A stretch of 64,000 nucleotides of DNA from Atractiella rhizophila (Eukaryota): positions 1 to 64,000 of the forward strand of contig MU271306.1 in the NCBI GenBank assembly GCA_021432655.1, in the 5' to 3' direction. A program made the translations under genes and the position numbers. Of the stretch, positions 690 to 50,112 are shown in pieces (within the stretch, counting starts at the first letter, position 1; the number at the start of each line of letters is the position of its first letter). The notes beneath the pieces are model-generated. The model did no database searches. It saw only the letters and a program-made list of their open reading frames with translations, and was not told the DNA's origin.

Positions 690-935
690 ATGAGCGCTGC
701 GAAGTGCGAGAATACAATGAGTATATTCTCTGCTGATGGCAATGTATCCATCCTACCAGTTCCGCTCAATTTGTCACACCTCACTGCGTGGTGGAGGGAT
801 GAAGATGAAGATGGATTTAGACCAGCGAAAGAACGGGATTTAATTGTCCTTCTATTCTTTGGCGAGTGGCGCGAGGACTGCCAGGACAACGATGCGAGAC
901 TGTTCAGCATCAGTGGGCCAGTGGAACGTGACTGA
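690..935 (+). pseudogene. Internally deleted relic of the C-terminus of the expanded F-box/LRR-like family (copy 0)
   Basis: FSADGNVSILPVPLNLSHLT and IVLLFFGEW match FSTDGITSILPTPFDLSHLQ and RVLLFFGEW of the copy at 48386-50112. The segment between them (LDGG..FPDFIxWFFG) is missing. Confidence 0.75.
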
Positions 936-1552
936 TATACTTACTTTCACCCAAAGAAGACGCACGAAAGTCGCTGGCGCAACCCGCAAAGGGGATTACT
1001 ATCAATGTCGTAATGTACATGTCCAAGACGACAACTATGGCCTGTGAGCTGTTCATTTCTCAATTCTTGGTAATATCAGGTCCTGCTTCCGTCTTGTGAT
1101 GTTGCCACTGGGTCGTGTAAATAGAGCGCGTCTACAGATTCGTACGGAAGGGGCGAACTGCTCACATGAAAGCAGCCGTTGACATCGTGCGTTCTGCCCT
1201 AGGACCCCTTACGCCTTCATGCATCATCATTTGCATGATCCCATTAATATCATACAACCTTTCACTCAACACTGCCCGGTAATCATCCTGCCAGTAATCC
1301 TGTCCACAAGAACAGGGTCAACATCCTTGGTTGCCTCTCGGCTCCTCGATCTGTTGTGTCGAAATAGAGAAGAGGGACCTTCAGATAAGCTTCGGATAAC
1401 GATCAAAGCCCTACGTCCGGACGATGTTGCCTTTCTGGACGTTCACTTGTCTCCTGACGGTTGAACTTGTTAAGTATCAAAAATGCCATAGCGTTCCACT
1501 CCATCGCCCACAAACAGCTGCCTCCAACATAGATCTCACACGACCACGAGCG

Positions 1553-4269
1553 ATGGCAAGCGGAGCCATCATATGCGAGTTGGTGGAAGCGACTAAGAGG
1601 GTAAGTCTTTATGACTATTGTGCCAGGTCCAACTGAGATTGCCTACCTTAGGCAGAGGGCGAGATGATAGATATTCTTTCAGACCTACGTTCTCGGCAGC
1701 CTTCAATGATCTTCGGACTGAATGGGGAAGAAGCAGATAATGCTGATAGCCTGCTGGGTGGTGAGCATGAGCTGGCTACGCATCCACGAGTCATCTTCGA
1801 TAAGGAGTATCTCACATCAAGACTCTCGCTACTCGTTGAGAACGTTCATATGTGTGTCCCCTTCTCATCCTAACCACAACGTATTCAAATCTCTCCAGTG
1901 CAGCGGGTGGACCAACGTTAGTCCCTATCAACTGCGTTCCGAGAATACCGACTAAAGGGGACTGACTTTCTTACATCACTTAGAGACCTGATATTCCGGT
2001 GAGGAGAATTCTCTTCCTCAGGACTCGGTTCACTGCATCATCTAGGCTTCTCGTCCAAAATGGCTTCGATATCATGATCACAAGCGTTCAGCTTTCCTAC
2101 TTCCTTCAGCCAATTTCCGCTCCGCGGCATTCAGGTATTACGTGTGTCCTCCTCCTCCCCTCTACTATCATTTCTTTTGGTAACGAGTCCAGTAAATGTC
2201 TTATTTAGCGTAAGAGAATCTGCTCCACGCATTCACACAGGAGAAGATGTGGGTGCGGGTGGTATTCAGATAAAATGCAATCGCGGCCCCTCAGGCGTTA
2301 ATGGATCTTTCAAAATTGGCCTCGCAGGGGATGGTAGTGATGTGCCTTTTACTGTCCCCTTTGCTTTAAGTTTGTGAGTTTCTGTCATCGCGATTTCTTC
2401 TTCAACTTGATCAAGAAACGAGAGTCCAGGAACCACACGTCTGATGTCGCCGTCTCGTTTCAGCTTCAAGTCACGGTAGCATCGTCAATGCAGCGTGCAG
2501 AGAGGATGGTGGCAGAAGATCTGTTGGTTCGTACCATCAAAATCGAAGCCGGAAAGGATGAGGCGTATATCAATAAGAGCCTGATGAACAAGAACTGGAA
2601 CACTATTCTGGACGACGTCAACGTGGAGTGGAAGGAAGCTGGCTTTACGCTTGGTCAAGATATTGACATCCCTTTGCTCCAGGCGCAGCACCTTCAGAAA
2701 TACTCGATGCCAAGATGGAGCACTTTGATACAGGCGCGAGATCCTCAGGAATCATCAGTACTGGTCAACCTCATCACCACAGCAAGACACAGCAGTTCGC
2801 TCCATATCTCCATCCTTCCCTCGTTCTTATCCCGACTACCTCCATCAATTCACACAATCCAGCTCTCTTTGATGTTACCTGTCGGATTCACGGCTTCTGA
2901 TCTGACTTTGGTGTCATCGAAATTGTCCTACTCTTCCCTCCAAACTGTCGAACATGCTCTCGATAACTCTGGTGTAGCAAATCTTTTGGTCACCTTCACC
3001 AAGCAACGTGTCATCGTAAACTTTGAGGCTGGGGACCAGCGTCTGGCTCTGACTCGTGACACAAAGTATTTCAGTGATGTATTTCCTCTCTTTCGTCACT
3101 CTGGGGCAGTCTTGGCTCCAGTCGCTCGGTACCATTGGGGCGAACATCGCTTCGTCCCAATCAGTGATGAATCACCGCTCTCAACCTTCTCCCAGAGTGC
3201 TGCAAACATTATTCAGCTGTCATTCCCTCCTGTGCCTGGGGCTTGCACCATCTCGTTCCTACCTACTGAGATCCTCTCTTTAATCTTTGATTTCTTCTTG
3301 GCAAACAGCGAAGTCGAAGACTATCCTATCCTATCTAGTGTTTGCCAGCTATGGAGAGTCGTTTCGACTCCATATTGGAACGTGCCTTATACTCGCTTGC
3401 AATGGTATTCTAATGCTGGGAGTTGGTGGACCGGACTGCACATCGAAGAAGGCATCAGCATCAGGATGGTGAAAGACCTCATGGCGGGTTCCCCAAATTT
3501 GACGTCTTTGCAATTGCAAGCATTCTGGAATGAGGAAGAGGCGCAAATTGTGTTGAATGGAATTCAGCGCCTGACAAAGGTATCCACTGTAATGTTTGGA
3601 GACCAGGGTTCGAGGAAGTGGAGGAAGGGGGAGGTCGAGATATTTACGCGGAGGATGGGTGGGAGAATCAGAGAACTTGTCTCTTACGGCGGGAAGAAAT
3701 TTTCTTCGTTCTCCGCTCCTTTGGTGTCGGCAGGGCTTCAATCAGCTCCAGGACTGACACAGCTAACACTTCGTCTTTCTAATCTGTATCCCCTTCCACC
3801 ATCTGCCTCGAGCTCCTCATTGCCACCTCTTCTGGAACATCTCGAGGTCCACATCTCCCCGTTGCAGCACGATGTAAAGATCTCCATCTTACCCAGTCCC
3901 CTGGACTTATCACATCTCTTGTACCTCACATCCCTCTACCTCGATGGTGGCGAGGAACCTTTCAACCTGGTCACCCTCCAGTTCTTCCCCACTCTCAAAA
4001 TTGCCGGAGCTATTAGACACCTGGATATTGCGTATTGTGTGCTGGACTCGTTCGATTTACCAGATTTCGTCCGCTGGTTCTTTGGGAATCGGCGAATGAA
4101 GGCAGCCAACAAGGGGGACGTGGCTGAGGAGGATGGATCAGAAGAGGAATGGACGAGAGGACGCAGTTTAAGTATCATCTTGTTCTTCGGAGATTGGGGT
4201 GAGGAGGACATTACCATTGCGAGATTGTGGTGTGAGCGAGACGGACAGGTTTCATCAGTTAGTGAGTGA
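1553..4269 (+). CDS. F-box/LRR-like family copy 1, fused to an extra intron-rich N-terminal module (5' end uncertain, may extend to about 1020)
   Basis: Long ORF 2374-4269 carries the family motifs ISILPSFLSRLPP, GVANLLVTF, F-box-like ISFLPTEILSLIFDF..LSSVCQLWR, SPNLT..AFW, GSRKWRK, LDLSHL, PDFVRWFFG and LFFGDW. In-frame introns at 2374-2429 (GTGAGT..CCAG, phase 2), 2142-2208 and 1601-1651 link it to upstream exons. Confidence 0.7.
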
Positions 4270-5914
4270 GGGGAGCTTGTGGAGGAGTGTGAAGTGGTGG
4301 TGAGTCTGAGGAGATCGGAGGGGAACCTGAGGTGATAGCAGATGTCGGCATGAAAACGCGATATCATTTCAACAGATCCTGAGGGCATGTGTCTCAGGGG
4401 GTCGTCAGATCACAGTTGGCACTTGGCAGGGATGAATGGGACCGTCTGAGGACAAAATAGAAGTCAACAGTTCGAATTGGTGTCCACTTTCCTTCAAATT
4501 GACATCAACATTAAACTCTTCGCGTCCTTTCTGCTGGTATGCGTAATCTATTTTAGTAGATTCCTTTAACTCTATCGGCTCGCGAAACGGTGTGATTGTC
4601 TACTCAAGGCGAATTTTCCCAGGTATCCAGACAGTCCTCGATAGTTCCATACTTCGTTCTCTCGCCTTGAACCGCATGCTGTCCAGGACCTAGCCTGGGA
4701 TGGGAGGAAAGCGCAAGGGTAGGCGAGGACGCTTAAGCACGGGCCCTGCAGACTCTTTACCTCCCCAAACTCCTTCGCAACCCACTCGATGCCAGAGCGA
4801 TCGTAACCTCCTTAAGCAGAGTGGTCTCGCAGTTTGGTGGATCTTTTTTGACGCCTAAGCGGTGCGAGCCTTGGACGTGGGAAGACCAAGGACGACAGGG
4901 TGAGAGGATATCTTCTTCGGTATCCCTACCATAAAGCCAAACAGAGTCAACAGAGCTTTTATGAGGAGAGGTATTAGGACCAGGATAGAGATTGGGTGAA
5001 ATGAAAGTGCGCTTTGGATTCGTCGGTGACTCACTCTGCTGGGAGGGTGTTGCTTACATGAGAACAGCATCACCTGTGGCTCGGAGTATGTCTAGCTGGT
5101 CTAGGATGCTGAATTGAAGCTCTTGCATCTTGTCCAATGTAGACACCAAATGTCTACCTCATATAATTAGGCGATGGCGAGTAAACTTCAAGCCAAGGTA
5201 ACACTGCGGTCGGGCGGTCGGCAATGCTATTGATGCATGCAGAATGGAATATGACTAACCTGACACTACCCCGGTAGTCTCCAGCCTACAAGAACGCGAC
5301 TGATGCTATGTCCCCTCCAACAGCAATCCAAGCGCGCCGTCTGATCCATCGGCACCACCACTCCCTCACGAACGGCACCTTCTGGGCCGTCTTCTTCTTC
5401 TCCATCCTCACCGTTTCCATTTCCGTCCATCGCGCAGAAAACGGTAAACGGCCACTGGGTAAGTCTCTGTCCATTCCCTGAGTGGTGTTTATGTACCTGT
5501 GCACCGCGAAATATACGGTATGATGGTTAACTTTGGGTATGATGTGTAGGATGTCCGGCGCCGGCCTCGCTCATGTTGGGATGGGGAGGAGGGAGAGGTG
5601 GATAGGAGGGTGGAGGAGAGGAAGGAGGAGAGGAGGAGGAAGTGGTTGAGGGAGGAATGGGATGATAGTGATTGGAGGTCGGGGTGGTGGAAGAGAATGA
5701 GCGGGAGACGGAAAGAGGAGTGAATATTCGAATTCCGTTCGTTCATTATTACCTTACTACTTTTGGGGATGACATTGCTTCTTCAAGGTTCTGGTCGACT
5801 TCTCGAGAAGGGTGTAAAAGCACATTGTGTGCACCTATGTGTACAAATACTTGCTAATCCTAATCTAAACACCTCCTCAATCACGCAGTAAAAATCGCAA
5901 CCAAAGCACAACTC

Positions 5915-6400
5915 CTCCTACCTCTTCCTCGCACCTCTTTAGTCCTCCTTTAAACCACTCCGCCACCTCTTTATTCGTCGCCTTCCCCTCCCACGTTCCA
6001 TTCCTCTCCTTCCATCCTCTCCTCCTCCTTCTCCTTCTCCCCAACAACCTCCCCTCACCTCTTATCACTCTACCCTCTTCCTCCCCTCCTCAACCACTCC
6101 CTCTCAAACTCGACCGGAAACAATCCAGACCCAAATCGTATCTCTCATCCTCTGGAATCACGTAGAAAATCCGCGTAGGCGAGCTGGATGATTGTTCTTC
6201 TGAGTTTCTGGTTGAAGCGGGAGGGAAGAGTGTGAGGTCGAAGAGGGATGGAGGTGCCCAGGCCTTCGACGTTGGTGGAGTTAACGAGAGCCGCTTTGAT
6301 GTGGATGTGGAGGTAGATTTGGACGCTTCAAATTGGGAAAGAACAGTCGAAGAGCGTACCGGAAGTTTTCCTCACCTCTCAACCTTCCGTCGACGACCTC
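5915..6400 (-). pseudogene. Degenerate duplicate of the 3' half of the TLS1/C9orf78-like gene
   Basis: Minus strand gives SKSTSTSTSK, FYVIPEDERYDLGLD and WEGKATNKEVAEWF, against SKSTSASTSK, FYVPPEDERHDLDLD and WEGKATDKEVAERF at 10112-10600. It has frameshifts and no 5' exons. Confidence 0.8.
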
Positions 6401-7252
6401 AACGCTTCTTCTCATCCTTCTCCTCCTCCTCTTCAAACTGGGGTCGCCTTCCAAACCGCACACCGGGAAAGGATATTGGAATACGATCTTCCGTGAAGAG
6501 TAACGCGAGCACTGATTTTTTGGTTCCGTCCCTGGGAGCGCGTCTCTGCCATTTCAAGCAAAAAATTCATTTGTACGATGGTAAATATTTATGGCGGCGC
6601 TTCTATCCTTTTACTCCGGCCAGCGCTTTCTTTAATCATCATGGTGGATCATGTCCTGATACAGCCCGCCCAGTTAAGACACAAAAAATGCTAGCGTTGG
6701 GCTTTTACAATTCAAGGTCGACTTCCCCTCGTAACTGTGTGTAAAGCTGGTATACGTCCTTCTAGTTCAGTCTGCTTCTAATGATTGGCGTGTTCTAATC
6801 AAGCGATAGACAGTCGGATTCCATGAGAGAAGTTCTTTCATGTCATCCGCCTTGGTTGATTGGTGCCCTGGTGCTCTGTTTGCTTCCTGATGACTATTGG
6901 GTTCCCTGAAGGTGATGCTGTACTATTGAGCAAACCATTGCTATGAGTGAGCTATTTATCGTTAAGCATTGCGTTGATACAATAGTGCACAAATAACTCG
7001 TGGTATAATATACAAATATCAAGTGGAAGATAGCGAAGATACAACAATCAATTCATTCCGGAATACCAATCCATGTTGTACAAACGGGAATATCGTGTCT
7101 GGGGTGAACAACGGAAACTTAGTCAGGCACAAGAATATGTTCAGATACATAAACAATTGGCGACCTGTGTCGCCTTTTTGGCATTTTTGGTGTAACTGCA
7201 GATAACTTTTAGGTTATGTACCGAGTGTTGAAGTGATATGAGAGACTCACCT

Positions 7253-9444
7253 TCATGTGAAATCTCTTCTAGAGTGTCTATCAACAATCGCATCACGGTA
7301 TTCCTCCCCACTCTCCCAAACTTTGTAAAATTTGTCCCCATCTCGCACGCCACATTCTCTCATCGTCCTCCTGGCAGCTTCAATCTCCTTCACGGACCAC
7401 TGTGCAAAGAATAAGCAAACACGTAAAAGGGATCCTCTCATTGTTCTCTCGACTTCAGATCCAGCATCATCCTCTGTTTCATCCCGCTGCTCGATTCTCG
7501 TTGTTGGGCGATGCGCAAAAAACCAGTAGATAAAGTCCGGGAAACCCAAGAATTCTACCTCACAGTACGCGATGTCTATTTCTTTTATCGCTTTTGCATT
7601 TTGAAGAGTGCGGAAAAGCTGGCGTGGAACAAGATTTGAGGTCTCTCCACCACCATCGATGAGGAGGGAGGTGAGGTGCGTGAGGCGGGATAAGTCGACA
7701 GGATTGGGTAGAACGACAGCAGACTTGTCAGGAGAGCAGGATGCGATCCCTAGCGCGAGATGTTCCAGAAGAGGAGGGAGATACGAACCCGAGATAGTCC
7801 AAGGGAGTTGAGGCAGATTGCAGAGAGTCAGTCGTTTGAGGCTATGTGGTAGGTAGAGGCATTCAAGAGTTGGGTACGTTTGAAGTGCTAGGGATACCAA
7901 GCCAGGATATAATTGAAAGCCTGTACGAACGCGCCGAGGGCGAGGAAGCAGAGTCCTCCACTTTGTATGCGGTGAGGTGTCTGAGGGTCCCACGCATCCG
8001 ATGTATAAAGTTCTCGACTTCGTCCTTCTTCCACTTCCTCCGACCTTCAGATCCAAAGGTTACCTCCACCAACCCTCTCAAACCTGAAATCGCATGCAGC
8101 ACAGTCTTCGCCTCCTCACTATCCCAACACGCGTCCAGGTACACTCGCGTCACATGCGGAGATGCGTCAATGACCGTTTTGACCATTTCGACTTTGACGA
8201 TTTCGACTTTGACCATTTCGACATTACTACGCCCTTGAAGCCACAGTGTGTTCCATAGACGTCCAGCACCAGGGTTTAATTGGACGCGATCATATTTCTC
8301 CTTGACAGATCCAGGTTCGTTCCCATAAGGGGCTGCAGCTTCTCTCCAGAGCTTGCACACGTCAGACAGAGTGGAACCTGTGTAGTGTCCGAGGAGAGAA
8401 TCTCCGACTTCGAGGAAAGCGAAGATGATAGACAAGAGCTCGATGGGTATGTGAGAGAAAGGGCTTCGAATAACCCCCCGAACGGGAGAGGCCGAGAGTT
8501 GTATGATGGCCGCTGCGTTTGAACGAGGGGACGGAAGTGATGATGATTCGTCATCCCTGAAAGGGACGAAACGTTGTTCAGTATCAGAGTACAGAGCAAT
8601 GGGGACGAAGATGGCTTCAGAGCGATATTCTGGCAGGAGACGAAATGTCCAAGTGGTGAGGTGTTCCACTTCCCTGGGCAGATCAGCTGAGTTGGCGGAT
8701 GAACCGACAGATAGATTGATAGATGAATCAGTACGTGAATTGATAGTTGGGTATGGGTTGAAAGGAGAGTCGAAAATTGAACCAAGCGACGAGTCGGAAA
8801 ATGAATGGGCAGTTGAATCAACAACTGGAGGAGGGCTAGCCGCCCCCCCTAAGCTGATGACAAGACTCGCTACACATACACGGTCCCCGTCGACTGTTTC
8901 TTCGAGATGCTGATGCTCAAGTGAGACGTGGGATAATTTCGAGGAGATCCAAGCGGGATCCTCATCCGTGAACCGAGATGGGACATCAAATTTGATCCAG
9001 AGCTCCCAAGTTGACGAAGGCAGGCCAGAGAGGAAAGAGCGAAGAATGGATAGGTAGAACAAACGGGTACGTTTCGCTGGCGTGATGAAATGGACAAGTG
9101 CCGTCGACTCTGATTGAGAATCATGGCGCGCGCCAGGTGCTTGTGGCCCAATTTCTTCACGAGAATCATGGTTTGAGATTTTTATTGGCTGCTCGATGTC
9201 TTCCCGAGAATGCTGGCTTGTGCAACGTGCTTGCTGCCCAAATTCTTCTCGAGAATGGGAATCATGGTGTAAGGAAACTGTTGACGGTTGGATGTCTTCC
9301 CGAGAATTCTGGTACGGGGTCTTCGTTTGCCGCTCGATCATTTCCTGAGAAGAGACGTCAAAGTATAGTCCATAATTTAGGTCAGATGAGAGGGGGAAAT
9401 ACCTGCGCTGTCGGGAAATCGTCAGATGATGAAGCTTGAACCAT
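7253..9444 (-). pseudogene. F-box/LRR-like family copy 2 with one frameshift (about 7925)
   Basis: Exon 1 at 9444-9403 (MVQASSSDDFPTAQ), intron 9402-9345, then a long exon. The motifs HIPIELLSIIF..LSDVCKLWR, AGRLW and RKWKKDEVENF continue after a frame change at about 7925 into LPPLLEHL, DLSRLTHLTSL, FPDFIYWFF and LFFAQW (ORF 7253-8056). Confidence 0.75.
8178..8222. repeat. 15-bp tandem repeat x3 inside copy 2 (VEMVK-VEIVK-VEMVK)
   Basis: tttgaccatttcgac-tttgacgatttcgac-tttgaccatttcgac. Paralogous copies carry this peptide once. Confidence 0.9.
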
Positions 9445-10111
9445 CTCAACCATTTTAAGGGCGAACAACATAATCAAAACTATGAAAACAGACAAGAAAA
9501 TAGACAAGAAAATGATGAACATTGTGACAGAACTACGCTTTGGAAAAGGTTAGCTTTTGGTGCTGTTGGATGGTGTTAGGTGATGGAAGTTGAAGCAGCA
9601 CTTCCAAACATCACCATTGGAAGGCGGTGCAATGTTGGGCATGGGCAAGAAAGTTGAGGACCTCACCAAACCCAGCCAAATCTTCTCATGTTTAAGGATA
9701 GTTGTTAGTTATTCGCTTTCGGTTCTCTTTCGCATCGGAGGTTCGCTTACGCGCGGTGGCTCTCCTAACTATTTGTGTGTTCTCCTCCATTGTAAAAAAT
9801 GCTGTTGCTTGTTGATGCGATGAATGACTATGCTTACACTACCCGGTAGTTCCTGTGCCTCTATTTCCGTTCGCCGAATCAGAATAATGGACAGGCAAAC
9901 CCTTGGCATGTTTATGCACTGATGTCCCTGCGGATGATCTGATGGGTTGACGTATGTAGGAGAGTCGGATAGGAAGGTAGACGAGATTACATGGGCATCT
10001 TCAGGGTACTGCTTGACTTCTGTAGGAGGCTGTAAAAGCACAATCTATGTACAAAGAATTTGCTCATCCAACGCTGTCATCAGGAAAAAAAGGGACCAAA
10101 AAGGACTACAA

Positions 10112-11547
10112 CTACCTCTTCCTCGCTCCCTCCCTCATCCTTCTCCTAAACCTCTCCGCCACCTCCTTATCCGTCGCCTTCCCTTCCCACGCCTTCCCCC
10201 CCTCCTTCCTCTCTCTCCTCTCCTCCGCATTCTTCTCTTTCTCACCCAACAGCCTCCCTCAACTTCCTCTCCCTCTCCATTCTCCTCCTCCCCTCCTCAA
10301 CCACCCTCTCCCTCTCAAACTCCACCGGATCAAAATCCAAGTCCAAATCGTGTCGCTCATCCTCCGGAGGGACGTAGAACCGCTGTGCGCGCCAGGTGGA
10401 CGAGTCTTCTTCTTGCCCTGTGGTTGGGAGAGGGGTGAGGGCAGGAAAGCGGTGGGAGGAGGAGGAGGGGACGGATGCGCTGAGGATCTCGAGGTCGGTG
10501 GACGTCAAAGAGAGACCTTTGGATGTGGATGCGGAGGTGGATTTGGATTGGGAACGAGAGTCGAAGAGGGCACGTTTGGCGATTTCGGTTTCGGAAATGG
10601 TCTTTAGGCGGTTGCTGTACACCCATTTCATGAATAGAGTACTTTGGGTAAAAGATAAGGGAGACACGCACTCGATTCCTAAGTCTACTTCTGGGATGTT
10701 GGTCAACATTCCCAGGCTCCCGCTGACCGTTCCTTCTTGAGCCTTAAACTATACCCATCCACATAACTCATCAACATGCCAACTATTCAGAAAGGGGAAA
10801 GGGAGCGCACCTTCTCCACCTTCCACGACTCCTGAATCTCATACAACTCATCCTTCTTCCCATTCTTCCCTCCCGAGCCTTGCTCCTCTTTTCCGCTAAC
10901 GCATCCCCAGCTGCACCCATGAGGAGCGCTTTCCGTTTGGGCAGCTCCGCTTCGATGTATGCCATCCTATCCTTCCTAGTTGAGCGTATGGGACAAAGAC
11001 AAAGGGAGTAGAGCGTACAGGTGTTTGTCTACGTCTAAGGCGTTCGTTTGTTGTGTGAAATTGTTGCTCTTCACACTTCTTCGCACCTTAGCTGCAGCTT
11101 CGTCCAGGTCCCTAGGCACAACAGAAACAGAAACAGAACAGAGTTACTACCTCCAAGAGAAAGATAGAGAAAGGAAAGAAATACGAACATCCCCTCCCAA
11201 TCTTTAACCCTATCCTTATCCCTCCTCATCCTCGTCAACCCACCCTTCACATCCTCCATCCCTTCCTCCTTCTCATCCGCCTTCTCCTCACCCGCATTCA
11301 ACACCTCCACATCGATGCCCCTCTTCGCACCTCCCACCAACTTCGCTAGCTTCCTGCGCAGGAGTATCTCCTCCACTCCTCCTCCTCCATTGCTCGCGCC
11401 TGGCCCGGAATCTTCAGCCGCTGAGGACGCACCGCCGGATGCGGCACCAGAGGCGGGAGAGGGAGAGCGCGGACGTGGGCGCTTGAGCGAGCGAGTGGGG
11501 GCAGACTTGCGTTTGAAGAGAGGAGCGGCGGTGGCGTCTGAGGACAT
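10112..11547 (-). CDS. TLS1: C9orf78/Tls1-like (Hep_59 domain) splicing-associated protein; two apparent single-base frameshifts
   Basis: Spliced motifs NNFTQQTNALDVDKH-xMAYIEAEL, DELYEIQESWKVEK, SLGMLTNIPEVDLGIDNRLKTISETEIAKR and C-terminal KATDKEVAERF are characteristic of the family. Frame breaks occur at about 10890 and about 10245. Confidence 0.85.
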
Positions 11548-11877
11548 TCTTTTCGCTGGTTTGTTAATGATTTGGGAGGATTAAACAATAATTATCGGCT
11601 AGTGTAATTCCGACCGGGCTGTTTAGTGGAGACACAATTAGTAGGTTGTGGTATTTTGATGCGCGTTATGATTTGCTTTCGAAATTATTCCAAAGATCAT
11701 TACCAGGTATCAAGAAGGTATCAATTTCTTTAAGTTTCTCTATGTAGCCTTCTCTGATCCAAACTCGTGGAATTCGAAGTGACAACCGGGCTGATTTGAA
11801 GCTGTCATCTAAGTTACAACCTTCATCCGACGTCGCCATTCACAAGGGAGCAGATAAGGGAAACGGAAACGAGGTAG

Positions 11878-34572: not shown

Positions 34573-34809
34573 ATAGTTATTTCAGGTCAGCATGAAAGGT
34601 TGTAATTTTACCACATCCCTTCCCGTCAACAACTCTCTTACCGTCTCAATATGTGATATCGTGTGAGTATGGATGAGATGGAGAAGGTTATCTAATCGAA
34701 AAGTGCGTGTGGACTTCCTCCTCATTTGTCAGTGCTTCAGCCACTTTACTTATACTCTTATTGATCTATTTATCAAAATATTGATTCCTATTTCTACTGC
34801 CACAAGTCA

Positions 34810-36739: not shown

Positions 36740-38509
<1,770 letters not shown>

Positions 38510-39408
38510 AAACTTTGTGAATGTGCAATACTATAGAAAGAAAGCTCGGGAGAATAAAGAACTACAATCAACCACCAATAATTGTAACTGGATCGTACGC
38601 TGAGTTTCTGCCGTGACCCTTCAATTCCGTCCCATCCCTTCTTCGTTGCGGCTTCGAAGGTGCCTCATAGCTTTACGATTCCTTCTTTGGCTCGGAATGT
38701 CTTTCTCCTGGCTTCGTAGTTTTGGATTCACGCGTGATCAATGGAAACTGGTAAGGCGAAGACGCCCACATTCGCAGCAATTGAAGTTGCAGTGAGGAAC
38801 CGTTAGGAGTAAATAGGATTGGATTTGCAATCTTTGGAATGTGACGGTTTGATAACCGCTCGAGAGCGGAGGAGTAGGATATGATCCATCTCCTGTCGTT
38901 TTTCGTTCAACGATGCTGCGTCCAAACGGAAGAAGTGGACGACGGAGACATTGAATGCAGGAGGTAAAGCGTTGAGAGACCATCTCAGGCATAAACTTGT
39001 GGTGTAGCTGATGCTGACAGTCAGAATGCTAAGCTGAGCGGGCTTGCATGACCTTATAAGGGCCAGGGTAACAGGAACCTCGGCTGTACATGAACCAACC
39101 AAGATGGAGAGAAGAGCTCTCAGGTGGGAAGAGGAGAACTGGGAGGATGGGCAAGAATAGAAACAAGAGAAGATAACGATACAGGTAGCAGTATGCGTAC
39201 GCGTAAGGAAGGCTGACAAAGAGATACCAGTAGCCTGTTGGAAAATATCTTTCGTGGTGTTCGTGGTATGACAAGGCAGTGGACGTAGTTCAGTGAACGA
39301 CGATGCCATAATCAACAAGTATGATTGTCATTGAGAAAAAAGGCATGTATTGAGACTCACTACACGGAAGCTAAGGAAAACATGAACGCCATGATCACCT
39401 CAAATCTG

Positions 39409-41397
39409 TCATGTCTCGCCATAAATTCCTTCCGTTCCAGACGAGGTCGATACAACAGGTTTAGATTTGTATCGCGACTTCTTTGGAGTCCACGGAGTGC
39501 GACTTGGAAAACTTTCTGCGTCTTCTGATTCACTCCTCCCACCACCCTCCCTAACTCTTGATGGTCCATCAGTGACACCACACTCTCTCAGCGTCCTCCT
39601 AGAAATGTCGATTCCCTCCTCGTTCCACTCTCCGAAGAATAAAAGAACACTTAAACTACCTCCAACCACCCAGTTCTGCTTGTTCGTCATCGTGCCACCC
39701 TCCGCAGCTGTGTTCGACTCTCGGTCCCCATAGAACCAACGGATGAAGTCCGGGAAATCAAAAGATTCTGTCATACAGTAAGCAAGCTCCATGTGACTTA
39801 ACCCTTTCGCATTCTTCAGAGTGCTGAAGAAGTGACGGCAAACAAGATCGAACATTCTTCCGCACCATCGAGGTTAAGGTAGGTGAGTTGTTTGAGGCGC
39901 GATAAGTCAAGAGGAGTGGGAAGGACGGATGTCTTTCCATGGACGGAGAAAGAGCCCTGCCGGAGATAGTTTAGCTGAGGAGGCAGAGGGGAGCTCGAGA
40001 TGGAGGGATGAGTGGACATAGATCGCTGACCGCCAAGTGCCTGAGCGTGGGTGGGAGCGAGAGGGGAAGAAAATGCGGATACCTTCGAAGTTCGAGGGCT
40101 ATGAGCCCAGGAGGTAATTGAAGGCCCACTGATGACGAAGTGGTAGAGGAGGAGAAACGATCCTTCACTGCGTAAGCGAACAGCTGTTTATTCGGAGGAC
40201 GGCTGCGAGCATCAAAAGTTCTCCACCTCCTCCTTCCACCAATATCCGGGGTCCGTGTGTGTGAAATTTACCTTCTCCAGATGTCTCAAGCCTTCAGTCC
40301 TGTTCAATACAAGCTTCGTCGCATCCGTGCACCTAGCGACACTTCCGTAACATTTAGAGAGCCCATGATGACCTCTTTTGCCATTTCAACTCCAAAATCA
40401 TCTTCAAAGCTCAGCCTCTTCCACAGACGTCCAGGACCAGTATAATCCTTCAGGCGAGCATGTTTCTTGTGCACAGAATGAGTCTCCTTTACATGAGAAA
40501 CTGAAACTAGCCTCCAGAGCTGGCAGACGCGAGATAGGGTGGAAGAAATGTTATAGTTGCCCTGATACTCGCTCTCGCTAAATACGATGAAATCGAATAT
40601 GAGAGAAAGAAGTTCGACATGCAATTTGGAGATAGAGCATACGGTATCTCCTGTTGTTGGTAAGCATGAAACTTGGATGATGGTGGTAGCGTTCTGACAT
40701 TGGGATAATTCGTCGTCAGTGGTTGGGATAAAGCGTCGATCGTTGAAAGAGTATAAAGCGATAGGGGCGAAGATAGCTTGAGAACGATGTTCTGGGAGAA
40801 GAGGAAATATGCGCGTGAAGGATTCCGTGTGAGTGAAGGGCTGAGGAACAATCCATTCCTTCTTCAAGCCAGATGCTTTCAAGAACCACGCTGGATAGTC
40901 CGAATCCACAGCTGCATCAATAGATGCCCGCTGATCGACCTCCCCAAATGTTACTGTGACGCCTATGTAGTCGGATGTGACGCAAAGATTCGCCACACCA
41001 TCGTCTTGGGCTGCATTTTCAGGGTGCCCAAGTGAGAAATGAAGTAGGCCAGTTTGGAGAACACTCTTGGAGGGATGAAATCCTCTGTTCGAAGTCGTAA
41101 GATAAAGGTAATTTGGAGTGTGTGAATTGACGAAGGCAGGCAAGATAGGAAGGATGTAAGAATGCTGAGATGGAAAGAAGTGATACTTTCGTTCAGAGTG
41201 ATGAGATTGACGAGTGCAGCCGCATCTGACTGAGCTTGAGACTTCTTCAGCGCACCTTAGATAGTTGCTGCTCAACCACTACCTGAGAAAAGACACTGGA
41301 CTGCAGCCTATGTTAGAAAGAACGCAGCTAAAGACAGAGATCAGATCATGCCTCTATTGCTGGAGTTTACATTGTCACTTAAGGAAGCTTGAACCAT
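39409..41397 (-). pseudogene. F-box/LRR-like family copy 3, multiple frameshifts
   Basis: Begins MVQASLSD, with the same start context as copy 2. Motifs DDGVANLCVT, FPLLPEHRSQAIFAPIALY, ISKLHVELLSLIFDF..LSRVCQLWR, PGRLW, LPTPLDLSRL, FPDFIRWFYG and LLFFGEW are spread over at least 4 ORFs in different frames. Confidence 0.85.
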
Positions 41398-42019
41398 CTC
41401 AACAAGTTTCAGGATAAACAAAGGTCGAGAGCGTGAGATGGAAATCACCACTCGAATCGCTCTTGGGATGGAATTGATAGCACCTTTCGCCGCGCGGATG
41501 GTGAACGAGAATGTCCGAACATTGTATCTTTATTCCCACAAAACTTCGCGGGGAAAGGTCAAGGAGGAGACATGTCGCACCGCCTGTTGAAATTGAACGC
41601 ATAAATAGAAGGTCATTGATGTACTGATAATTGATATTACGTTCTGTTGAACAGGTCCCATGAACCTTGGAAGAGTGTGTGTACCGTGATCACGACCAGC
41701 TGGGAAGGACAGGCTGCTCAGTGCGTCAACGTCGATAGCAAGGAGCCTATTGGATTCATGATGTGAGGAGAGGAGCCTGAGGCACGGGAGGATCCTCGAT
41801 TCGACAGAGTGGATTCTACGGGCCTTCCCTGTTGTCTAAGAGCTCAAAAGTTAGTCAACATGTTTGTTCTACCAATGAAATTTCGTCAAATTATTGTGGA
41901 CATACATAGCACGGCCCATTGTGTGGAACGACTTAAGTGTCGACTTTCGAACTTAGCGATGCTCGATTGAATGATACGGTACAACATCCGTAGCTTGGAA
42001 TTTGCATGTGACTGTTCCG

Positions 42020-42954
42020 TTACAATTTCGGTTTCTTCTCCAACAAGTCAACCTCGATGCTACAATACAGAAGAGTATCCTCCAATGCCTGCCCCATAAT
42101 CACATCAGTCTTCGTGCTCATCTCTTCGGAAAAATCGAACAAGGAAATACGAAGAAGCACGAGGAAAGAAGGGAGACGTACACCCAAACGATGCTTCCTA
42201 TTAATTTCCTGATAATCCTCTCCACAAAGCATGTCCATAAAATGATTAATGCTCGGATAATGCACGATCGAGACCTCATCCCATCCGTCCTTCCTGCCAA
42301 GCACACTACCTAAGATCTTCGCTTGCCCTCCCCTCTTCCCTCCAACCATAGCGAACTCCTGTGCGCAAGTAACTCATTCAAAACGTTTGAGAAACTGAAG
42401 GAGAGAGGGAACCACCTTGCCATATTTGTGATAGCTCTCCCGAGCCCATTCTCCCTCTTGGAACCGCATGAGGTTAAACATTGTCACTGGCCCATCGTAC
42501 CTGTTCTGCAACGCCTCTCCCTTCTCCAACAGCTCCTTTGACAACTCCAAACTCTGTCCCTCGCCTTCCCCGCCTTTCTTCTGCTTCAACATGGCGAGGA
42601 ACTTTTCGAGTGAACCTGTGAGTGGGACACCCTTCGCCTCATTCCTCAATCTCTCCGATGTCGTTTCGTATTCCTGCACCAGGTTTTTTGGGACACCAAT
42701 TGGCAAAGTGTACACATCCGCCTTCTCCAGGATCTCTGGTGGGAGTTGTGACGTATTGGACTGTGGAGGAGATGGCAGGAGGAGAAGGATGGATGGAAAG
42801 TGCGACGGGAGGGGGAGAGGGAAGGGCTAACGACGGGGAATTGGAAGGAGGAGAGGACGAGGGAGGTGGGAAGGAGTGTCTGGACGAGGAGGAGGACAGA
42901 GTTGGGTGTACTCGAAGGCTTGTGAGTGAGTAGGTGTAATGTGAGTGCTGGCAT
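42020..42954 (-). CDS. Conserved fungal protein with a C-terminal DUF1330-like alpha/beta barrel and possible PTS1 (-PKL); apparent frameshift near 42810
   Basis: MPALTLHLL...; PVTMFNLMRF..ESYHKYGK; GGKRGGQAKILGSV..WDEVSIVHYPSINHFMDML..DYQEINRKHRLG-ALEDT; ends KKPKL*. Confidence 0.65.
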
Positions 42955-43570
42955 GGGTCCCGCTAGTCCGCTTCGATATTCTTGAGGGATAAATCTGCAA
43001 AGGAGCGGCCGTGCAAGGGGCAAGTTCAAGGAAGGCTGGTAATATACAAGCCAACTTGAAGTTCGTCGTTACTTCAGGGTTAGATTATGCTTTCACCGTT
43101 GGTCGGTGCAGCATCTCCAGAAACGATAGGCGTTTGGGTTGCATATTAGATGCTAGCAGTGCTGTAATATGATGGGAGCAAATGATGAACGGCTTCGTAG
43201 GTGAGAGTTAGTATGAACTCGGAACATCAGTATCGACGGCGTCGCAATAGGTTTCATTAAGTCCTAACTTTACTACTAGTACTCAACAATCTTCGATGAA
43301 CGTTTCCCAAATACTGAGATGTGAATGCACGGTACTTATACGGATTCAGTATTCATGATTTGATGAATGAATGTCAAACACTGGGGTTGGAACGATTGGC
43401 TGGCTGCTGGCGGTAGTATATATCCTTCCAGCGTAGCATGTCCGATTAGCACGTGAACCCCACATCGAGCCCTATCCCAAGTCTCCTTTTCAATACTGTA
43501 TGGAGGAGGATGATACGAGTCTCACCTTCGTGTCAATGTCTTATTTAGATTGTAAGTCAGATATCCGACA

Positions 43571-45217
43571 TCATTCTCCACACTCCCGAATCCAACTAAC
43601 ACCGTCCTCCTCACTCACCCCTACATCTTTCATCGTGATCCGGGCGATATCGATATCCTCCTCGCGCCACCACCCATAGAATAGGCGAACTCTCAGCTCA
43701 CGTAGTCGCGCCATTGTTTCCGCTTCACATACATCCATCATATGCTCGACCTCGAACCCCCTGTTTCCGAAGAACCAAAGGATGAATTCTGGGAATACGA
43801 AGTCCGGGAAACAGGACCAGGCGACGGGACAGTATTGAACATCTATTCTTTCAATGCACTCTGCATTTGTCAGGGTTTGGAAGAGCTGTGGGTAAGCAAG
43901 GTTTGACTCTTCCTGGGCACCGTGGAGGACGAGGGAGGTGAGGTGTGTAAGGTGCGATAAATCAAGTGAGTTGGGTAGGATAGAACTCCCATCGAGTATG
44001 ATCGTGCAATCTTCTAGAAGGGGAGGTAGAGCGGTGCTTGAAATGCAAGGAGGGAGTGGACACATGTTGGAGAGATGCAAGTATTTGAGGGTGTGCGGAA
44101 GCGGCATTGATGAGACAGGCGGATAAGTGTGAAGCCGCAGGGATATTAGGTCATGAGGTAATTGGAGGGAGGTCGGTGCTGAAGGGGAAGAGTTCTCTAC
44201 TCTGTCAGCGGTGAAGTGTCTGATCCTCCCACCCATCCTCCACATAAAATTCTCGACCTCCTCCTTCCTCCATTTCCTAGAGCCCTTGTTCGAGCTCTTC
44301 AAGTTGTGTGCAAACACTACGGTATCTAGCTTCGGCAAGCCTCCCAATGTATTCCACACCGTCTCCATCTCGTTGTCGTCCCAAAACGCATGAACCTCCA
44401 AAGAAGTAACATTCGGCGAGCCCTGGATGAGCTCTTTCATCATCTTGACGCTCATATACTCTGTAAACACCAACTTCTTCCACAAAACGCCGGCACTAGG
44501 AAAGATCCTCAAACGAGCGTGCTGTTCCTTCGCAGTGTTAGGAGTATGCCAAAGAGCAACTGACACCTTTCCCCAATGGGGGCAGACATCAGGGAGCCTG
44601 TACACTGTTTTCTCCCAGTGCGAATATTCATCGGCATCGCCACGTGTGAGATTATCGAAGATGCAGGAGAGGAGCTCGTCTGGCAGAAAGGAGATGTAGC
44701 TAACCGCGGAATTTTGGGAGAGCGAGAGTTGGACAATGTTCGGTTCGCCTCTTTTAAGGCGGGGTGAAAGGTACTCGTCATTGTGATGGATTGGGGTGCA
44801 GAAGTTGTGTGCGTCGTATTCGGCTACAGGGACGAAGATCGCCTCCGAGCGATTTTCCGGGACAAGAACTATGCGAGTGAAGGATAAACGAAAGGACCAA
44901 TGGTCAAGTCCTGGCTGCTCTGCCTCCCCAAAGGTTGCGGTGATATTTTCCTCGTTTATAGTGACGGAAAGATTCTCCACAGCGCGGTTGTCGGCTGCAA
45001 TTTCGAGATTTCGAAGTGAGAATTCGGACAACATGGAGAGTGGCGCAACAGGTCCGACAGCCCCATCATAAAGGGGTATTAGATAGTTGAAAGTGATGCG
45101 GAGCGTATGGATTGGAGGAGGTAGGGAAGATAGGAAGGAGGGAAGAATGGAGAGGTAGAGATCACGAGCTGCTGGTGTTGAGGTGATGAAAAGGACAAGT
45201 GCGCTCGAGTCTAGTTC
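43571..45217 (-). CDS. F-box/LRR-like family copy 4, apparently intact main exon (first exon not located)
   Basis: Continuous frame from a TACAG acceptor at about 45218 (ELDSSALVLFIT..LYLSILPSFLSSLPP) through ISFLPDELLSCIF..LPDVCPHW, SPNVT, GSRKWRKEEVENF, LDLSHLTHLTSL, FILWFFG and LFYGWW to the stop at 43571. Confidence 0.8.
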   Translation of the reverse strand, partial: ELDSSALVLFITSTPAARDLYLSILPSFLSSLPPPIHTLRITFNYLIPLYDGAVGPVAPLSMLSEFSLRNLEIAADNRAVENLSVTINEENITATFGEAEQPGLDHWSFRLSFTRIVLVPENRSEAIFVPVAEYDAHNFCTPIHHNDEYLSPRLKRGEPNIVQLSLSQNSAVSYISFLPDELLSCIFDNLTRGDADEYSHWEKTVYRLPDVCPHWGKVSVALWHTPNTAKEQHARLRIFPSAGVLWKKLVFTEYMSVKMMKELIQGSPNVTSLEVHAFWDDNEMETVWNTLGGLPKLDTVVFAHNLKSSNKGSRKWRKEEVENFMWRMGGRIRHFTADRVENSSPSAPTSLQLPHDLISLRLHTYPPVSSMPLPHTLKYLHLSNMCPLPPCISSTALPPLLEDCTIILDGSSILPNSLDLSHLTHLTSLVLHGAQEESNLAYPQLFQTLTNAECIERIDVQYCPVAWSCFPDFVFPEFILWFFGNRGFEVEHMMDVCEAETMARLRELRVRLFYGWWREEDIDIARITMKDVGVSEEDGVSWIRECGE

Positions 45218-46519
45218 CTGTATATCCCATAAATCAATGTGGGGTCAAACAGGATAAGGAGAAAGCTAGCAACAGCAATCATATCATCCATGCGTTGCCG
45301 CGTCACACGCGGAAATCCAAACGATGGAGCATACTCCATGCACAAAGGGCAGAGGTCGAAACTGTAAGGATGTAGAAAGGATTGCTGGATCCTGGGCTGG
45401 ACCCTAATGAGATCGATGGAGCGATGTTGTCGATGGATTAGGAGGGTCCTTGAATGGGAAACGTCCACACGTCCGGACGTTGGAGTTTGCATCGCGAACG
45501 TGGACGTGGAGAAGGACTTCATGGAGGCTACAGAGGAGAGTTTGTGCCAAGTTATTAAAAGTGCAGCCTAACATCATTCTTCAGCTTGACCTTTTGGAAA
45601 TTGAGTACAGGCATCTTGAATGGAAACCGGCGACAGGAAGGCTGGCTTCGTTTCACTGCAACAGAAGCTGGTTTAATCACGAGATACGATGATGCACGGA
45701 TGTGGCCGTCGCGCAATGGGATTTCGTCTGTTGATGACGACTCTCGCACAAAGGAGCGCATATGTTGTCTTTTATTTGACAACGACACTCGGCTTGAGAG
45801 CACTGACCAGAAATCAGAAGTGGGCTCGTGACACTTTGTCAACCTAAACGTATGTTGTGAACGGTACGGATGAAGAGAATGGTAAGCTCAAACACTCACC
45901 GATCCTAACAAGTGTTTGAGATAGGAAAGAAGAGAGTTTGGTTGTGAGACGACAAAGGCAGAAAGTGAACGGAGGAAGAAAATAGGACATGTAACCCTGG
46001 AATAAATTTTGCCACCGCCAGGAAGTTGAGGAGGGTAGGCGAAACTCACTGGCGCGGGAGGCACCGGAGACACAGAATATAGTAATTATCGGTTTAGGCC
46101 TGAAGACGCTAATTTCTTCCAGAGGGATAGCTCTTCAGGAAACTCCAATTCCAAGGCCACGAGGCAAGAAACAAGAACGCATCCTAGGGCCTTGGATTGC
46201 GGTTGAGGGATCGCAAAGACAACGCCCGTTCATCGTCACTTTTTCTGATTTGGTTACGCCTTCCGGAAACAGGTGGTTGAACTTTCGCTGGTTCCTCTTT
46301 CTCTTCAAAATCTCCCTCTCTCTTTCTCACGAACCTCGTAAGGTAAAACATGTTCGCAGCCGTGATATCTTTTCATGACTTCGGCAGCTCCCTCCATACT
46401 GGTCGCACATTTCCTTTGATTCTGTGCCGATATCAGCCACGTGGCCGTCATGTCGCTCGCTTTTGACTCTAAGTCGAAATGACTGTGTTCTTCCACATCG
46501 CTCCTCCCCAGCCTCCCAG

Positions 46520-48000
46520 ACTCGCGTCCAGTTGAAGTCACGGTCTCAGGCTCCCCGTGCAAATCTCAATCTTCTCCTCGTTCCACCCTCCATAGAATAA
46601 AAAGATCGTTAAAAGTCCTCCATTCATACTTTTCGATCAATCGTCTTCACTCCAACCCACTAGAGCTTTTGCCACCAGCCGATCTCCAAAGAACTAGCGG
46701 ATGAAATCTGCGAAATCGTCCAACTCCACCAAATTGTACGCGAGATCTATCCGCCTCACTCCTCACGCATTTTTAGTTTGTGGAAGAAATGTGGGCAACT
46801 AGTTTCGAATTTTCGTCGGTACGGAGGGAGATGAGATGTTTCAGGTGCGATAGGTCGGGTCGGGTCGGTAGGGTAGAGGTGGTTCCATTAGTCGAGTAGG
46901 GGGAGCTGGGCCGAGAGGTCTTTGTAGGAGACATGAGCCTGAGACAGAGATAGGGAGTGGTCGTAGATTGCTGACCGTCTGGCGCTGAGCTTTGTGGGAG
47001 AGCGAACCATGGAAGAGGTACCTTTTGAAGTGTTAGATCTGTGAGACCATGCAGCAATTGAAGTCCCGCTGACGCTCAGGCAAGCAGGGAAGTGCGACAC
47101 GCTGACCACTCTGACGCTCCTACTCATCCTGTGCGCAAAGTCCTCCACCTCGTCCTTGTCCCACTTTCTTGAACCCTGATCTCCAAAGTTAGATCTCCTA
47201 CCCTCTTCAAGCCTTCAGTCAACACGGCCATGGCTTTCTCTTCGTGCCAAAGTGCATCCAACCACAGCTCTGTAACATTCGGTGAGCCGGCAATAACCTC
47301 TTTTGACATCCCAACACCAATATGTCGGTTGAACAACAGCCTCCCGCACAGTCGTCCGCGCCATAACAGAGTTTCAAACCGGCGTGCTTTGTTCCACAGA
47401 GTCAGGTACGTGCTGATATCCAACTGAAACAGCCTTCCAGAGCTGCCAGACGTCAGAGACAGAATGGAACGGAGGTCTGTGTCCTCTTCTTCGATTGATG
47501 CGATGGATTCGGAGATGACAGACAGAAGCTCCATTGACAAGCAGGAGATACAGCATGGGGCAGCCGCTAGTTTTGGGCGGAGGGACAATTCTTTAATGTC
47601 CACAGTGCTCGAATGGAGAGATATTGAGAGGGGTGTCATCATTCGCCATCACTGAGAGGGACGAACCCTCGTTCCTTGCTAGAGTGTGAGGCTATGAGAG
47701 CGAAAGATAGCCTGACAACGATTTTCTGGAAGGAGAGGAGATATGCAACTGAAGATCTTGGTCCGTGGTGGCACATGGACAAGTGTCAGTCATTCCCCAA
47801 CACGTACTGTAACGTATTCCCAGTCAAGGTTGGCGCAAACGTTCGCAACGCTATCCTTTGACAGTGCAGAGGCAGAGGCAATGGGGTAATGTTCACCCAC
47901 TTAGGGATTGCTTGAAATCCAGGAAAAGTTGAATAGCTGGCGAATATTGAGTCGTTCGAAATCATGATGTTGTCAAAACAAAGGAGGGAAGCGAAGGTAC
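46520..48000 (-). pseudogene. F-box/LRR-like family copy 5, heavily degraded
   Basis: Fragments CISCLSMELLSVI, EVIAGSPNVTELWLDALW, LPTRPDLSHLKHLISL, FADFIR*FFGDR (TGG to TAG) and LFYGGWNEEKIEI lie in shifting frames. Confidence 0.8.
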
Positions 48001-48385
48001 ATCCTGTCCACATGAATCAAAATGTGTAGTTTGTCGGACGATGTGACCGCCTACGATGGATCCCTAAAGCATGAACAACATTGAGATTTTGAGTTTCTCA
48101 CGAACTTAAGACCATGTACTTACAATTTGTCCGACTCTAAAGAATGGTGACCTGGCCACAGTAGAAGGGCTTATTGCTCAGGTAACGGCCCATTCTTTAT
48201 TTTCCCAACAGTACCTGAGTGTCTAATGAATAAAAGGCTTCATAGAGTTGTTGCTGAATTGAAAGAAGATTTTATCCCAGCTCGTAAGTATAGGTGATCC
48301 CGCCGTCAACAACTCCTCAGGGAATTTCATTCCGTGAGAGAGTTTGACCCTCTTCTTTGGAGCGTAATACGAAAATCCCGTCACG

Positions 48386-50112
48386 TTACTCTTCCGGGTC
48401 GTCTCGACACTGCCCCCAACAAATCCCTGCCCCTTTGGCGCTCGACGAACACGCCATCATCGTCCTCCTCGCAATCCAGATCTCCTCCTCAGCCCACTCT
48501 CCAAAAAACAAAAGAACACGTAAAATAGATCGGCTCCTCACTTTTCCCCCTTCAGACCTAGATCCATCTTCCATATCCGCATCGTTCTTCTTAGGTTTCT
48601 CAGCCCTTCGATCTCCAAAGAACCAATGGATGAAGTCTGGGAAATCGAAAGAGCTCACGAAGCAGTAGGAAATCTCTATCAATTCTATGGACTTAGCGTT
48701 TTTGAGAGTACTGAAGAACTCTCGCGAAACTAGGTTTGAAGTGTCCTTTCCACCATCGAGTATGAGCACAGTGAGATGTTGGAGGTGTGATAAGTCAAAC
48801 GGGGTGGGTAGGATGGAGGTAATTCCATCAGTCGAGAACGGCGCGAGCTCGATATGGAGGTATTCTAGAAGAGGTGGCAGAGGGAAAGCCGAGAGGGATG
48901 GAGGGAGGGGGCATAAATTGGAGAGTTTCAAGCGCAGGAGGGTGCGCGGGAGAGAGAGGATCGGTGGAGGCGGATAATTTTCGAGCGTGACCGAAGTGAA
49001 CCCCAGAGGTAAGTGGAGGCCATTTGACACGGAACGGGCAGAGGAGGAGGAAGAGAGCTCCTCGACTTCGTAAGCAGTGAGCCGTCGGAGCCTTCCACTC
49101 GTCCTCCAAGTAAAATCCTCTATCTCCTCCTTCCTCCACTTTCTCGAACCCTTATTGCCAAAGGTCACTTGCTCCAACTTCTTTAAGCTTTCGATTGCCC
49201 TCAAAACTATCCTCGCCTCCTGTTCATTCCAAAACGCATCCAGCCACACGTAAGTAACGTTCGGCGAGCCCGTGATGACCTCCTTCACCATCTCTACGCT
49301 GATATTTTGTTCAAACTCCAATCCATTCCATAGACGCCCAGCGTGAGGATACACCCTCAAACGAGCATGTTTCCCTTTCGCAGAAGAAGGTGGATTTGAA
49401 TGAGCAACCGAAACTGCCTCCCAGAGCCGGCAGACTGCATGGAGCCTGGAAGATGCGTGAGAAGAGAAGGGGAAATCTCTATCTTCGTCAAATTTCAAGA
49501 AATCGAAGATGATGGAGAGGAGCTCGACGGGTAAGCATGCGATGGAGCAAACCTCTGACAGTGGGGGAAGCGAAAGTTGGATAATGGTTGCAGAGTTCTC
49601 ACGGAGGGATGAGAGGCATGCCGATTCGTCGTCGCTGATGGGGATAAAGCGCTCTTCTTTCCTGGAATGTAAGGCGATGGGGCGGAAGATAGCCTGAGAG
49701 CGAAGCAGAGGAAATGTGCATGTAAAGGGTTCCGCAAAAGTGAAGGTCGATCTGCCCCAGAACCAGAGGAGGTATTCCGGATCAACAGGCTCGGGTTTTT
49801 CGATCCCAAAGTTTACCGCGACTGTTTTGAAGTTGAAGGTAACGCGAAGATTCGCTACCCCGTCCTTTTCCAGTGCATTTTCGAGACCTTCAAGTGAGAT
49901 ATGGGACAATTTCGAGGATACTCGTGCAGGGGCATCTTCCTTGAGTCCAAGTGGGAGCGCAAACGTGATGCGTAGGGTGTGAATGGAGGGGGTAGGCTAG
50001 ATAGAAAAGAGGGAAGAATTGAGAGGTGAAGCGAAGCGATATTTTCCGACGGAGTTATAAAATTGACTATTGCGGTCGAGTCTCGCTCGTAAATAGCTTG
50101 CTGGCCAGTCAT
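48386..50112 (-). CDS. F-box/LRR-like family copy 6; single frameshift in a G5 run (49988-49992), either pseudogene or assembly error
   Basis: ORF 49855-50112 (DSTAIVNFITP..LHLSILPSFLSSLP) shifts into the frame of ORF 48386-49909, which has all family motifs (IACLPVELLSIIFDF..VCRLW, AGRLW, GSRKWRKEE, FPDFIHWFFG, LLFFGEW). Confidence 0.75.

Follow-up and report, generated by a model that had tools for sequence, protein, structure and literature searches.

Seven copies of the family in the window

The genes described here belong to a family whose proteins consist of an N-terminal domain (the N-domain), an internal F-box and a series of leucine-rich repeats (LRRs). Seven copies lie in the window, by which we mean the whole stretch of 64,000 nucleotides that was analysed (positions 1 to 64,000 of contig MU271306.1, forward strand) from the fungus Atractiella rhizophila (assembly GCA_021432655.1). 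The original prediction, made from the letters of this stretch, was that seven strongly diverged copies share an ordered string of motifs and show various stages of decay. A search of the window with copy 7 as tblastn query, then with a profile of 91 full-length family members on six frames, bears this out. The copies are at about the predicted places (Table 1), the motifs and their order hold, and the pairwise identity among the copies is 27-46%. Five of the seven are broken, from a relic, through single frameshifts, to pseudogenes with multiple stops.

Table 1. Coordinates of the seven copies and of the exons attached to them (window positions)
Feature	Position	Strand	Description
Copy 1	714-878	+	Relic; of the LRR region, SILP-DLSHL and LLFFGEW alone are left (tblastn and profile)
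Exons upstream of copy 2	1553-2745	+	Other small gene family, in frame into copy 2; predicted fusion; public gene model P0022
Copy 2, family part	2746-4269	+	Frame open; N-domain ~2740-3225, F-box ~3238-3384, then LRR
Copy 3	7253-9450	-	One frameshift near 7920; short first exon near 9400-9450; part matching the family profile 7253-9116
Copy 4	~39412-41278	-	Pseudogene; several stops and frameshifts (tblastn and profile); part matching the family profile ~39412-41232
Copy 5, main exon	43571-45217	-	Intact N-domain, F-box and LRR
Copy 5, intron	45218-45273	-	56 nt, GT-AG; removed in public contigs of runs X4 and X19 (joint 45216-45273)
Copy 5, first coding exon	45274-45339	-	22 codons from first ATG (45339); inferred start codon
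Copy 6	~46493-47870	-	Heavily decayed pseudogene, many stops (tblastn and profile)
Copy 7	48386-50112	-	536-codon open frame, preceded by a short 5' piece; frame broken once near 49987, within a C run

The extent of copy 2 had to be revised. It was predicted to span 1553-4269, of which the part from 2746 onwards stands, the exons before it belonging to a different gene family that is predicted to be fused in frame. In copy 2 one LRR turn lacks about 18 residues, and copy 3 has an insertion in the N-domain and a leader expanded by repeats. The break in copy 7 is bridged by one additional base in a public contig of run X19. As this contig also differs from the window nearby, it may come from another allele, a strain or a close paralogue, or the window may contain a base-run error. 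Copy 7 may thus be unbroken in a different allele or strain, or an assembly error may account for its break.

A family tree was built from the 91 members and three broken window copies, with copies 1 and 6 left out. The window copies are scattered in it and form no common group, and the five that were placed have terminal branches of 0.58-1.14, compared with a median of 0.26. The low mutual identity and these long branches indicate that the window copies are old, diverged members of the family.

In many members a short coding exon precedes the long one, the intron between them being ~60 nt long and often having a GC donor; the donor motif, CAG/G[C/T], is found upstream in 51 of 94 members. In copy 5 this intron is spliced, and once it is removed the frame stays open from the ATG. 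Conservation of the intron and its splicing in copy 5 led us to reject a retrogene origin. The evidence for expression consists of assembled contigs from 4 of the 22 public runs listed, from which levels cannot be read. Contigs from all four runs compared cover the main exon of copy 5. Run X4, from which one contig of depth 3.8 carries the splice, is a root metatranscriptome that is on record as RNA. Hence at least this copy is transcribed and spliced, which answers the concern that no copy might be expressed.

Three further observations concern the immediate surroundings of the copies. A piece of the Hep_59 gene is duplicated at 5768-6354 and 9985-10568 (70% identity) on either side of copy 3, a sign that segmental duplication took place locally. 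Upstream of copy 7, 87 bases from its ATG, a tRNA-Glu gene (50199-50270, reverse strand) occupies the place of the first exon of other members. Across copy 6, a contig of run X19 (window 45916-48003) has two GT-AG introns on the forward strand, which suggests a spliced antisense transcript.

The neighbours in the window are otherwise ordinary: Hep_59, a RAI16-like gene, an E1 dehydrogenase, a zinc dehydrogenase, a flavin oxidoreductase, a RING fragment and the tRNA-Glu. Towards the end of the window there is a direct tandem duplication (55219-61286; 3.0 kb, 95.6% identity) that contains the start of a gene that we take to be dUTPase-like, a piece of a neighbouring gene and a 407-codon LRR-like frame (56422-57642 and 59455-60675). 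A different F-box-like frame with an N-terminal motif, for which no Pfam match was obtained, is found at 61036-61962 on the forward strand, with a truncated duplicate at 58003-58401 on the same strand.

The family in the genome and its three domains

The window holds a small fraction of the family. In the 51.5 Mb genome (G000), where all family counts are lower bounds, a long query gave at least 81 scored matches among 477 candidates, and two N-domain queries gave at least 151 and at least 154 matches (the best 150 of 255 and of 283 candidates were scored). Open frames of at least 500 aa hold 112 of the 150 N-domain matches listed. The copies are clustered: 86 of the 150 listed are on 16 contigs with at least three copies each, mostly on the same strand, e.g. 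11/11 on C39, 8/8 on C184 and 8/8 on C88. In 13 array stretches the units are 6-7 kb long, the family frame is open, the spacers listed contain few long frames, and the spacer has been duplicated along with the gene (65-97% identity). Because spacer DNA and gene were duplicated together, we conclude that the family grows by tandem segmental duplication. The prediction of dispersed copies is right for the window; genome-wide, recent births sit in tandem arrays on other contigs. The birth-and-death turnover that had been postulated is supported by the copy number, the young arrays and the broken window copies. A constant partner gene in the arrays was considered and rejected, as the homologous spacers hold mostly short frames, and four long spacer frames gave no Pfam match.

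Profile searches recovered sequence relatives from A. rhizophila only, in agreement with the prediction of a lineage-specific family. With a full-length profile, 40/40 matched proteins were hypothetical proteins of this species, as were 15/15 at E<=1 with an N-domain profile of 112 sequences; both searches scored the best 8000 candidates inside a length window. A 20-sequence N-domain profile run against 1.84 billion representatives gave 31 matches. Of these, 24 were identified: among ten that were looked up, nine are from A. rhizophila and one is a Polarella LRR protein matched via a short repeat, and 14 more are named A. rhizophila. Among metagenome contigs, 54 pattern matches were obtained and none was confirmed as family. 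Relatives may exist in unsampled sister taxa.

The F-box-like segment is a real F-box, as had been suspected. Scanned alone, it matches the Pfam F-box-like family (PF12937) at E<=0.001 in 69 of 84 members, several of which pass the curated cut-off. A family F-box profile gave 17 matches at E<=10 against PDB sequences, 16 of them F-box proteins, with FBXL5, FBH1, Dia2 and Skp2 at the top. The core residues are nearly invariant (E and W in 91/91 members, P in 89 and C in 85). The genome has three Skp1 matches. These lie on contigs C110 and C301, two of them 11 kb apart, and the Skp1 paralogues could work with different F-box families; F-box-like matches in the whole genome number at least 148. 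The position of the F-box, preceded by some 200 residues, had been regarded as out of the ordinary. This view has to be given up, since in PDB profile matches the F-box begins at residue 212 of the Dia2 chain, at 139 in FBH1 and at about 100 in Skp2, and in FBXL5 it follows a sensor domain.

A structure model of the full-length protein has a mean predicted local distance difference test (pLDDT) score of 66.6, which is high from residue ~240 on, i.e. over the LRR part (~240-560). The model resembles RanGAP (Z 17.4, root-mean-square deviation (rmsd) 3.6, 273 aligned), FBXL17 (Z 17.2, rmsd 4.6, 288 aligned), FBXL2 (Z 16.9, rmsd 3.2, 274 aligned, residues 185-562 including the F-box) and Skp2 (Z 14.1). 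According to this model, the LRR part is a ribonuclease inhibitor (RNI)-type solenoid of ten turns C-terminal to a true F-box, which agrees with the repeats that had been read from the sequence.

The N-domain had been described as a beta-rich, unrecognised domain of roughly 200 aa. The beta-rich character and the absence of a match in the libraries searched hold; the size does not, for the folded part is ~165 aa long and follows a leader of 20-35 aa. The domain was unfolded in the first full-length model (22 sequences), and 112 sequences were needed to obtain a compact model (pLDDT 83.3, predicted template modelling score 0.80; five models 81.6-83.3), which has ten strands and three short helices and is built on paralogues alone. 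In a fold search against 48,161 solved chains, seven reached Z>=2 and the best had Z 2.9 (rmsd 3.4, 42 aligned); unmatched models typically have a best Z of 7 to 8 with the same tool. Foldseek gave no match at E<=0.001 in the PDB and viral models, and no usable match came from sequence searches of Pfam, the PDB and the ESM Atlas (ESM Atlas feature scores <=0.80; best TM 0.52, on a poor model). Could the N-domain be another solenoid of LRRs? At its start it is similar to a single LRR turn, and it was here that the Polarella protein matched; this idea was rejected, as profile comparison with the family LRRs gave a probability of 0.5% and none of the seven chains at Z>=2 is an LRR chain. The model was made from paralogues only and the searches covered the PDB and viral models, so we call the N-domain a candidate new fold and no more; a missing match does not prove one.

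Some members are joined to other genes. The family fused to copy 2 has stand-alone paralogues on contigs C135 and C855 and is fused in frame in the same manner on C177 and C584, where the exons share 55-64% identity with those of copy 2. It is a multi-exon family of ~260 aa, for which no match was found in Pfam or the PDB, and it occurs alone in tandem or fused to a gene of the F-box family. On contig C1 (L138 2242-8776), a gene with patatin, NB-ARC and TPR domains stops at most a few bases from a member's open frame, and public model P0044 joins the TPRs to that member. The sister copy on C811 also adjoins a NOD-like receptor (NLR) of the patatin-NB-ARC-TPR type. A general link to these NLRs was rejected: by eye, ~3 of ~150 copies have one within 5 kb, which is about chance, and two of them (C1 and C811) are sisters. 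These fusions are isolated cases and not typical of the family. In L088 (C374) and P0001, two N-domains share a single open frame as head-to-tail fusions.

Selection and the likely role of the family

The ratio of nonsynonymous to synonymous substitution rates (dN/dS, or omega) in 31 disjoint close pairs is 0.71 for the N-domain, 0.63 for the F-box and 0.56 for the LRR part. A codon mixture model of all 91 members prefers classes with omega>1, with twice the log-likelihood difference (2dL) at 1591. For 36 close paralogues of at least 78% DNA identity the same model favours sites with omega>1 by a 2dL of 1246; the null simulations for this set, 20 in all, gave a 2dL of at most 3.0 and zero selected sites. 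The sites fall where a ligand would be expected. LRR proteins bind ligands with their concave face, on which the exposed strand positions lie, and in the ten LxxLxLxx motifs of the 36 members 27/50 exposed positions are selected (mean omega 3.2), compared with 0/30 buried positions and 12/245 positions elsewhere (Fisher p 1e-15 for the exposed enrichment). Exposed strand sites with omega ~3 to 8 are found in every LRR turn, and just 2/48 F-box sites are selected. The proposal that positive selection acts on the LRR surface is thus supported.

We propose that the intact genes form a diversifying repertoire of SCF (Skp1-Cul1-F-box) substrate receptors, that the targets are likely to be foreign or selfish proteins, and that the N-domain is an accessory module. 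We put the probability of this at about 60%. The proteins would be cytoplasmic and dock on Skp1-Cul1 through the F-box. The concave face of the ten-turn solenoid, which varies from copy to copy, would bind a target that differs accordingly, and the bound target would be ubiquitinated and then degraded, as is established for FBXL proteins. New specificities would come from the observed tandem segmental duplication, followed by the positive selection on exposed LRR strands, and copies that are no longer needed would decay, cf. the broken copies of the window. By analogy, targets that change this fast would most likely be foreign or selfish proteins inside the cell, e.g. viral, bacterial or mobile-element proteins, and an immune or host-interaction role may be suggested on the same grounds.

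The role of the N-domain is the weakest step. Most likely the domain, whose beta core is conserved, is an accessory module that stays constant and is not where specificity mainly resides; it would most likely serve for the pairing of receptors or for docking on a fixed partner or location. In the competing view, the N-domain would offer another variable surface for recognition or act as a bait: its loops would touch the target or imitate a protein attacked by an invader, and specificity would be combinatorial with the LRRs. Eleven positively selected sites in its loops (11/97 loop or helix positions) and the dN/dS of the domain speak for this, as do the extra domains in front of some copies (copy 2, C177/C584 and the NLR abutting on C1). 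Against it, the strands are conserved (0/68 selected, mean omega 0.47), five of the 11 sites adjoin indels, where the alignment is doubtful, and distant from indels the selected sites number 6/132 in the N-domain versus 29/289 in the LRR part. The fold searches also found no likeness to a solved host protein. We consider a second recognition surface unlikely. Doubtful too, if somewhat less so, is a bolder extension of our own proposal: an intracellular fungal immunity by degradation, in which more than 100 antibody-like SCF receptors, each with a hypervariable LRR part and with the N-domain, as a new beta fold, for co-sensor, bait or platform, would remove viral, bacterial or transposon proteins and could be coupled to NLRs or other modules by fusion in frame.

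Other explanations concern the targets, or deny that there are any. The receptors might tune proteins of the fungus itself, in development, root colonisation or nutrient switches, with the variation following fast-evolving endogenous partners. F-box genes of Agaricomycetes are developmentally regulated and tandemly expanded, according to the available passages of one preprint (bioRxiv 10.1101/349894), and copy 5 is spliced in a root metatranscriptome. The high omega in every LRR turn and the frequent gene death fit an arms race better, and we regard this explanation as rather improbable. That the proteins are F-box effectors, which act in the plant host and hijack its SCF ligases, would suit a root-associated organism with RNA from roots, and the public model of copy 3 (P0040) has a hydrophobic N-terminus. 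Yet copy 3 has a frameshift, no hydrophobic stretch is seen by eye in the N-terminus of copy 5 after splicing, and the proteins are ~570 aa long; we give this very little credence.

The least credible explanation is that the family is a mobile-element open reading frame or passively duplicated DNA without function. It would account for the high copy number, the many broken copies and the segmental duplications that include decayed neighbours. It is largely refuted by purifying selection on the core and the structured pattern of positive selection, together with the conserved 5' intron. In addition, 22 full-length and 112 N-domain members gave no Pfam match to a transposase, reverse transcriptase, integrase or Rep/helicase, and the flanks listed contain no ends common to the whole family, similarity being confined to close paralogues. 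The family thus matched neither a known transposon nor a widespread family, either of which would have spoken against the original prediction.

Several points weigh against the receptor repertoire that we favour. For the selection test we used a grid model of our own with the tree fixed; its signal may be inflated by gene conversion among tandem copies, and the ten strand motifs were chosen after the site scores had been seen. The F-boxes of the window copies match the Pfam F-box-like model with E 0.004-0.01 and 16-17 bits, under the curated cut-off of 24.3, and many members have an F-box insertion of up to ~15 residues. Among the three parts dN/dS is highest in the N-domain, and the loops of this domain are variable; a binding role fits this too. 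Support for expression consists of single low-depth contigs, and the intact fraction of the family is biased upward, since only the best candidates were scored.

Comparison with known systems

In its layout the family resembles FBXL17, FBXL2, Skp2, Dia2 and plant TIR1, COI1 and MAX2, in which an F-box is followed by an RNI-type LRR solenoid, and it shares an internal F-box with Dia2, FBH1 and Skp2. These FBXL-type receptors are conserved genes with fixed targets. The present family differs in its copy number, which exceeds 150 in a single genome, in its hypervariable LRR face and unmatched N-domain, and in that no sequence relatives were found elsewhere. The closest parallel for a separate folded N-terminal domain before F-box and LRRs is FBXL5, also the best PDB match of the F-box profile (E 0.0011), in which this domain is a hemerythrin, i.e. 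a helical di-iron sensor (PMC6381054, parts of the paper). A sensor of this kind was rejected for our family: the FBXL5 domain is helical with His/Glu iron ligands, whereas the modelled N-domain consists mainly of beta strands and the residues kept in at least 90% of 112 N-domains (I, S, F, L, A and Q) are not metal ligands.

How much of this is new? The original prediction held the system as a whole to be undescribed, which goes too far. Atractiella is a relative of the rust fungi, in a class other than Agaricomycetes. Mushroom-forming fungi possess 67-1,199 F-box genes, mostly recent tandem duplicates; the available passages give a developmental role and report no site-level selection (bioRxiv 10.1101/349894). 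These expansions are similar in having hundreds of copies by recent tandem duplication, and they differ in that no member was matched by our family profiles. F-box expansion and fast evolution are also treated in the accessible part of a further paper (PMC10282164). Our searches, which covered main texts in the open literature, turned up neither a study of this family nor one of positive selection in F-box/LRR genes of fungi. New here is a large, species-restricted family with a well-folded, unmatched N-domain; internal F-boxes and fungal F-box expansions were already known.

Fungal non-self recognition is mainly described via NLRs and cell-death proteins, and in the text of a 2023 review of fungal immunity (PMC10197012) the words 'F-box' and 'ubiquitin' are absent. 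An arms-race F-box/LRR repertoire would point to a second, degradation-based arm. The N-domain, with 165 residues, no solved look-alike and more than 100 paralogues in one genome, is a good target for structure determination; it may also be an example of a domain that originated, or diverged, in a single lineage.

The nearest evolutionary parallel is found in nematodes. The substrate-binding domains of the Caenorhabditis F-box families are FTH/FBA2, whereas here we have a fungus and LRRs, and no sequence relation was found between the two. Both show lineage-specific expansion, gene death and positive selection on the substrate-binding surface. For Caenorhabditis, birth-death evolution with positive selection in the substrate-binding and not the ligase-binding part has been published, and degradation of foreign proteins proposed (PMC4334554, in passages citing earlier work). 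Judged from its sequences and structure models, the family in A. rhizophila is best read as working like a repertoire of FBXL receptors of the nematode arms-race type.

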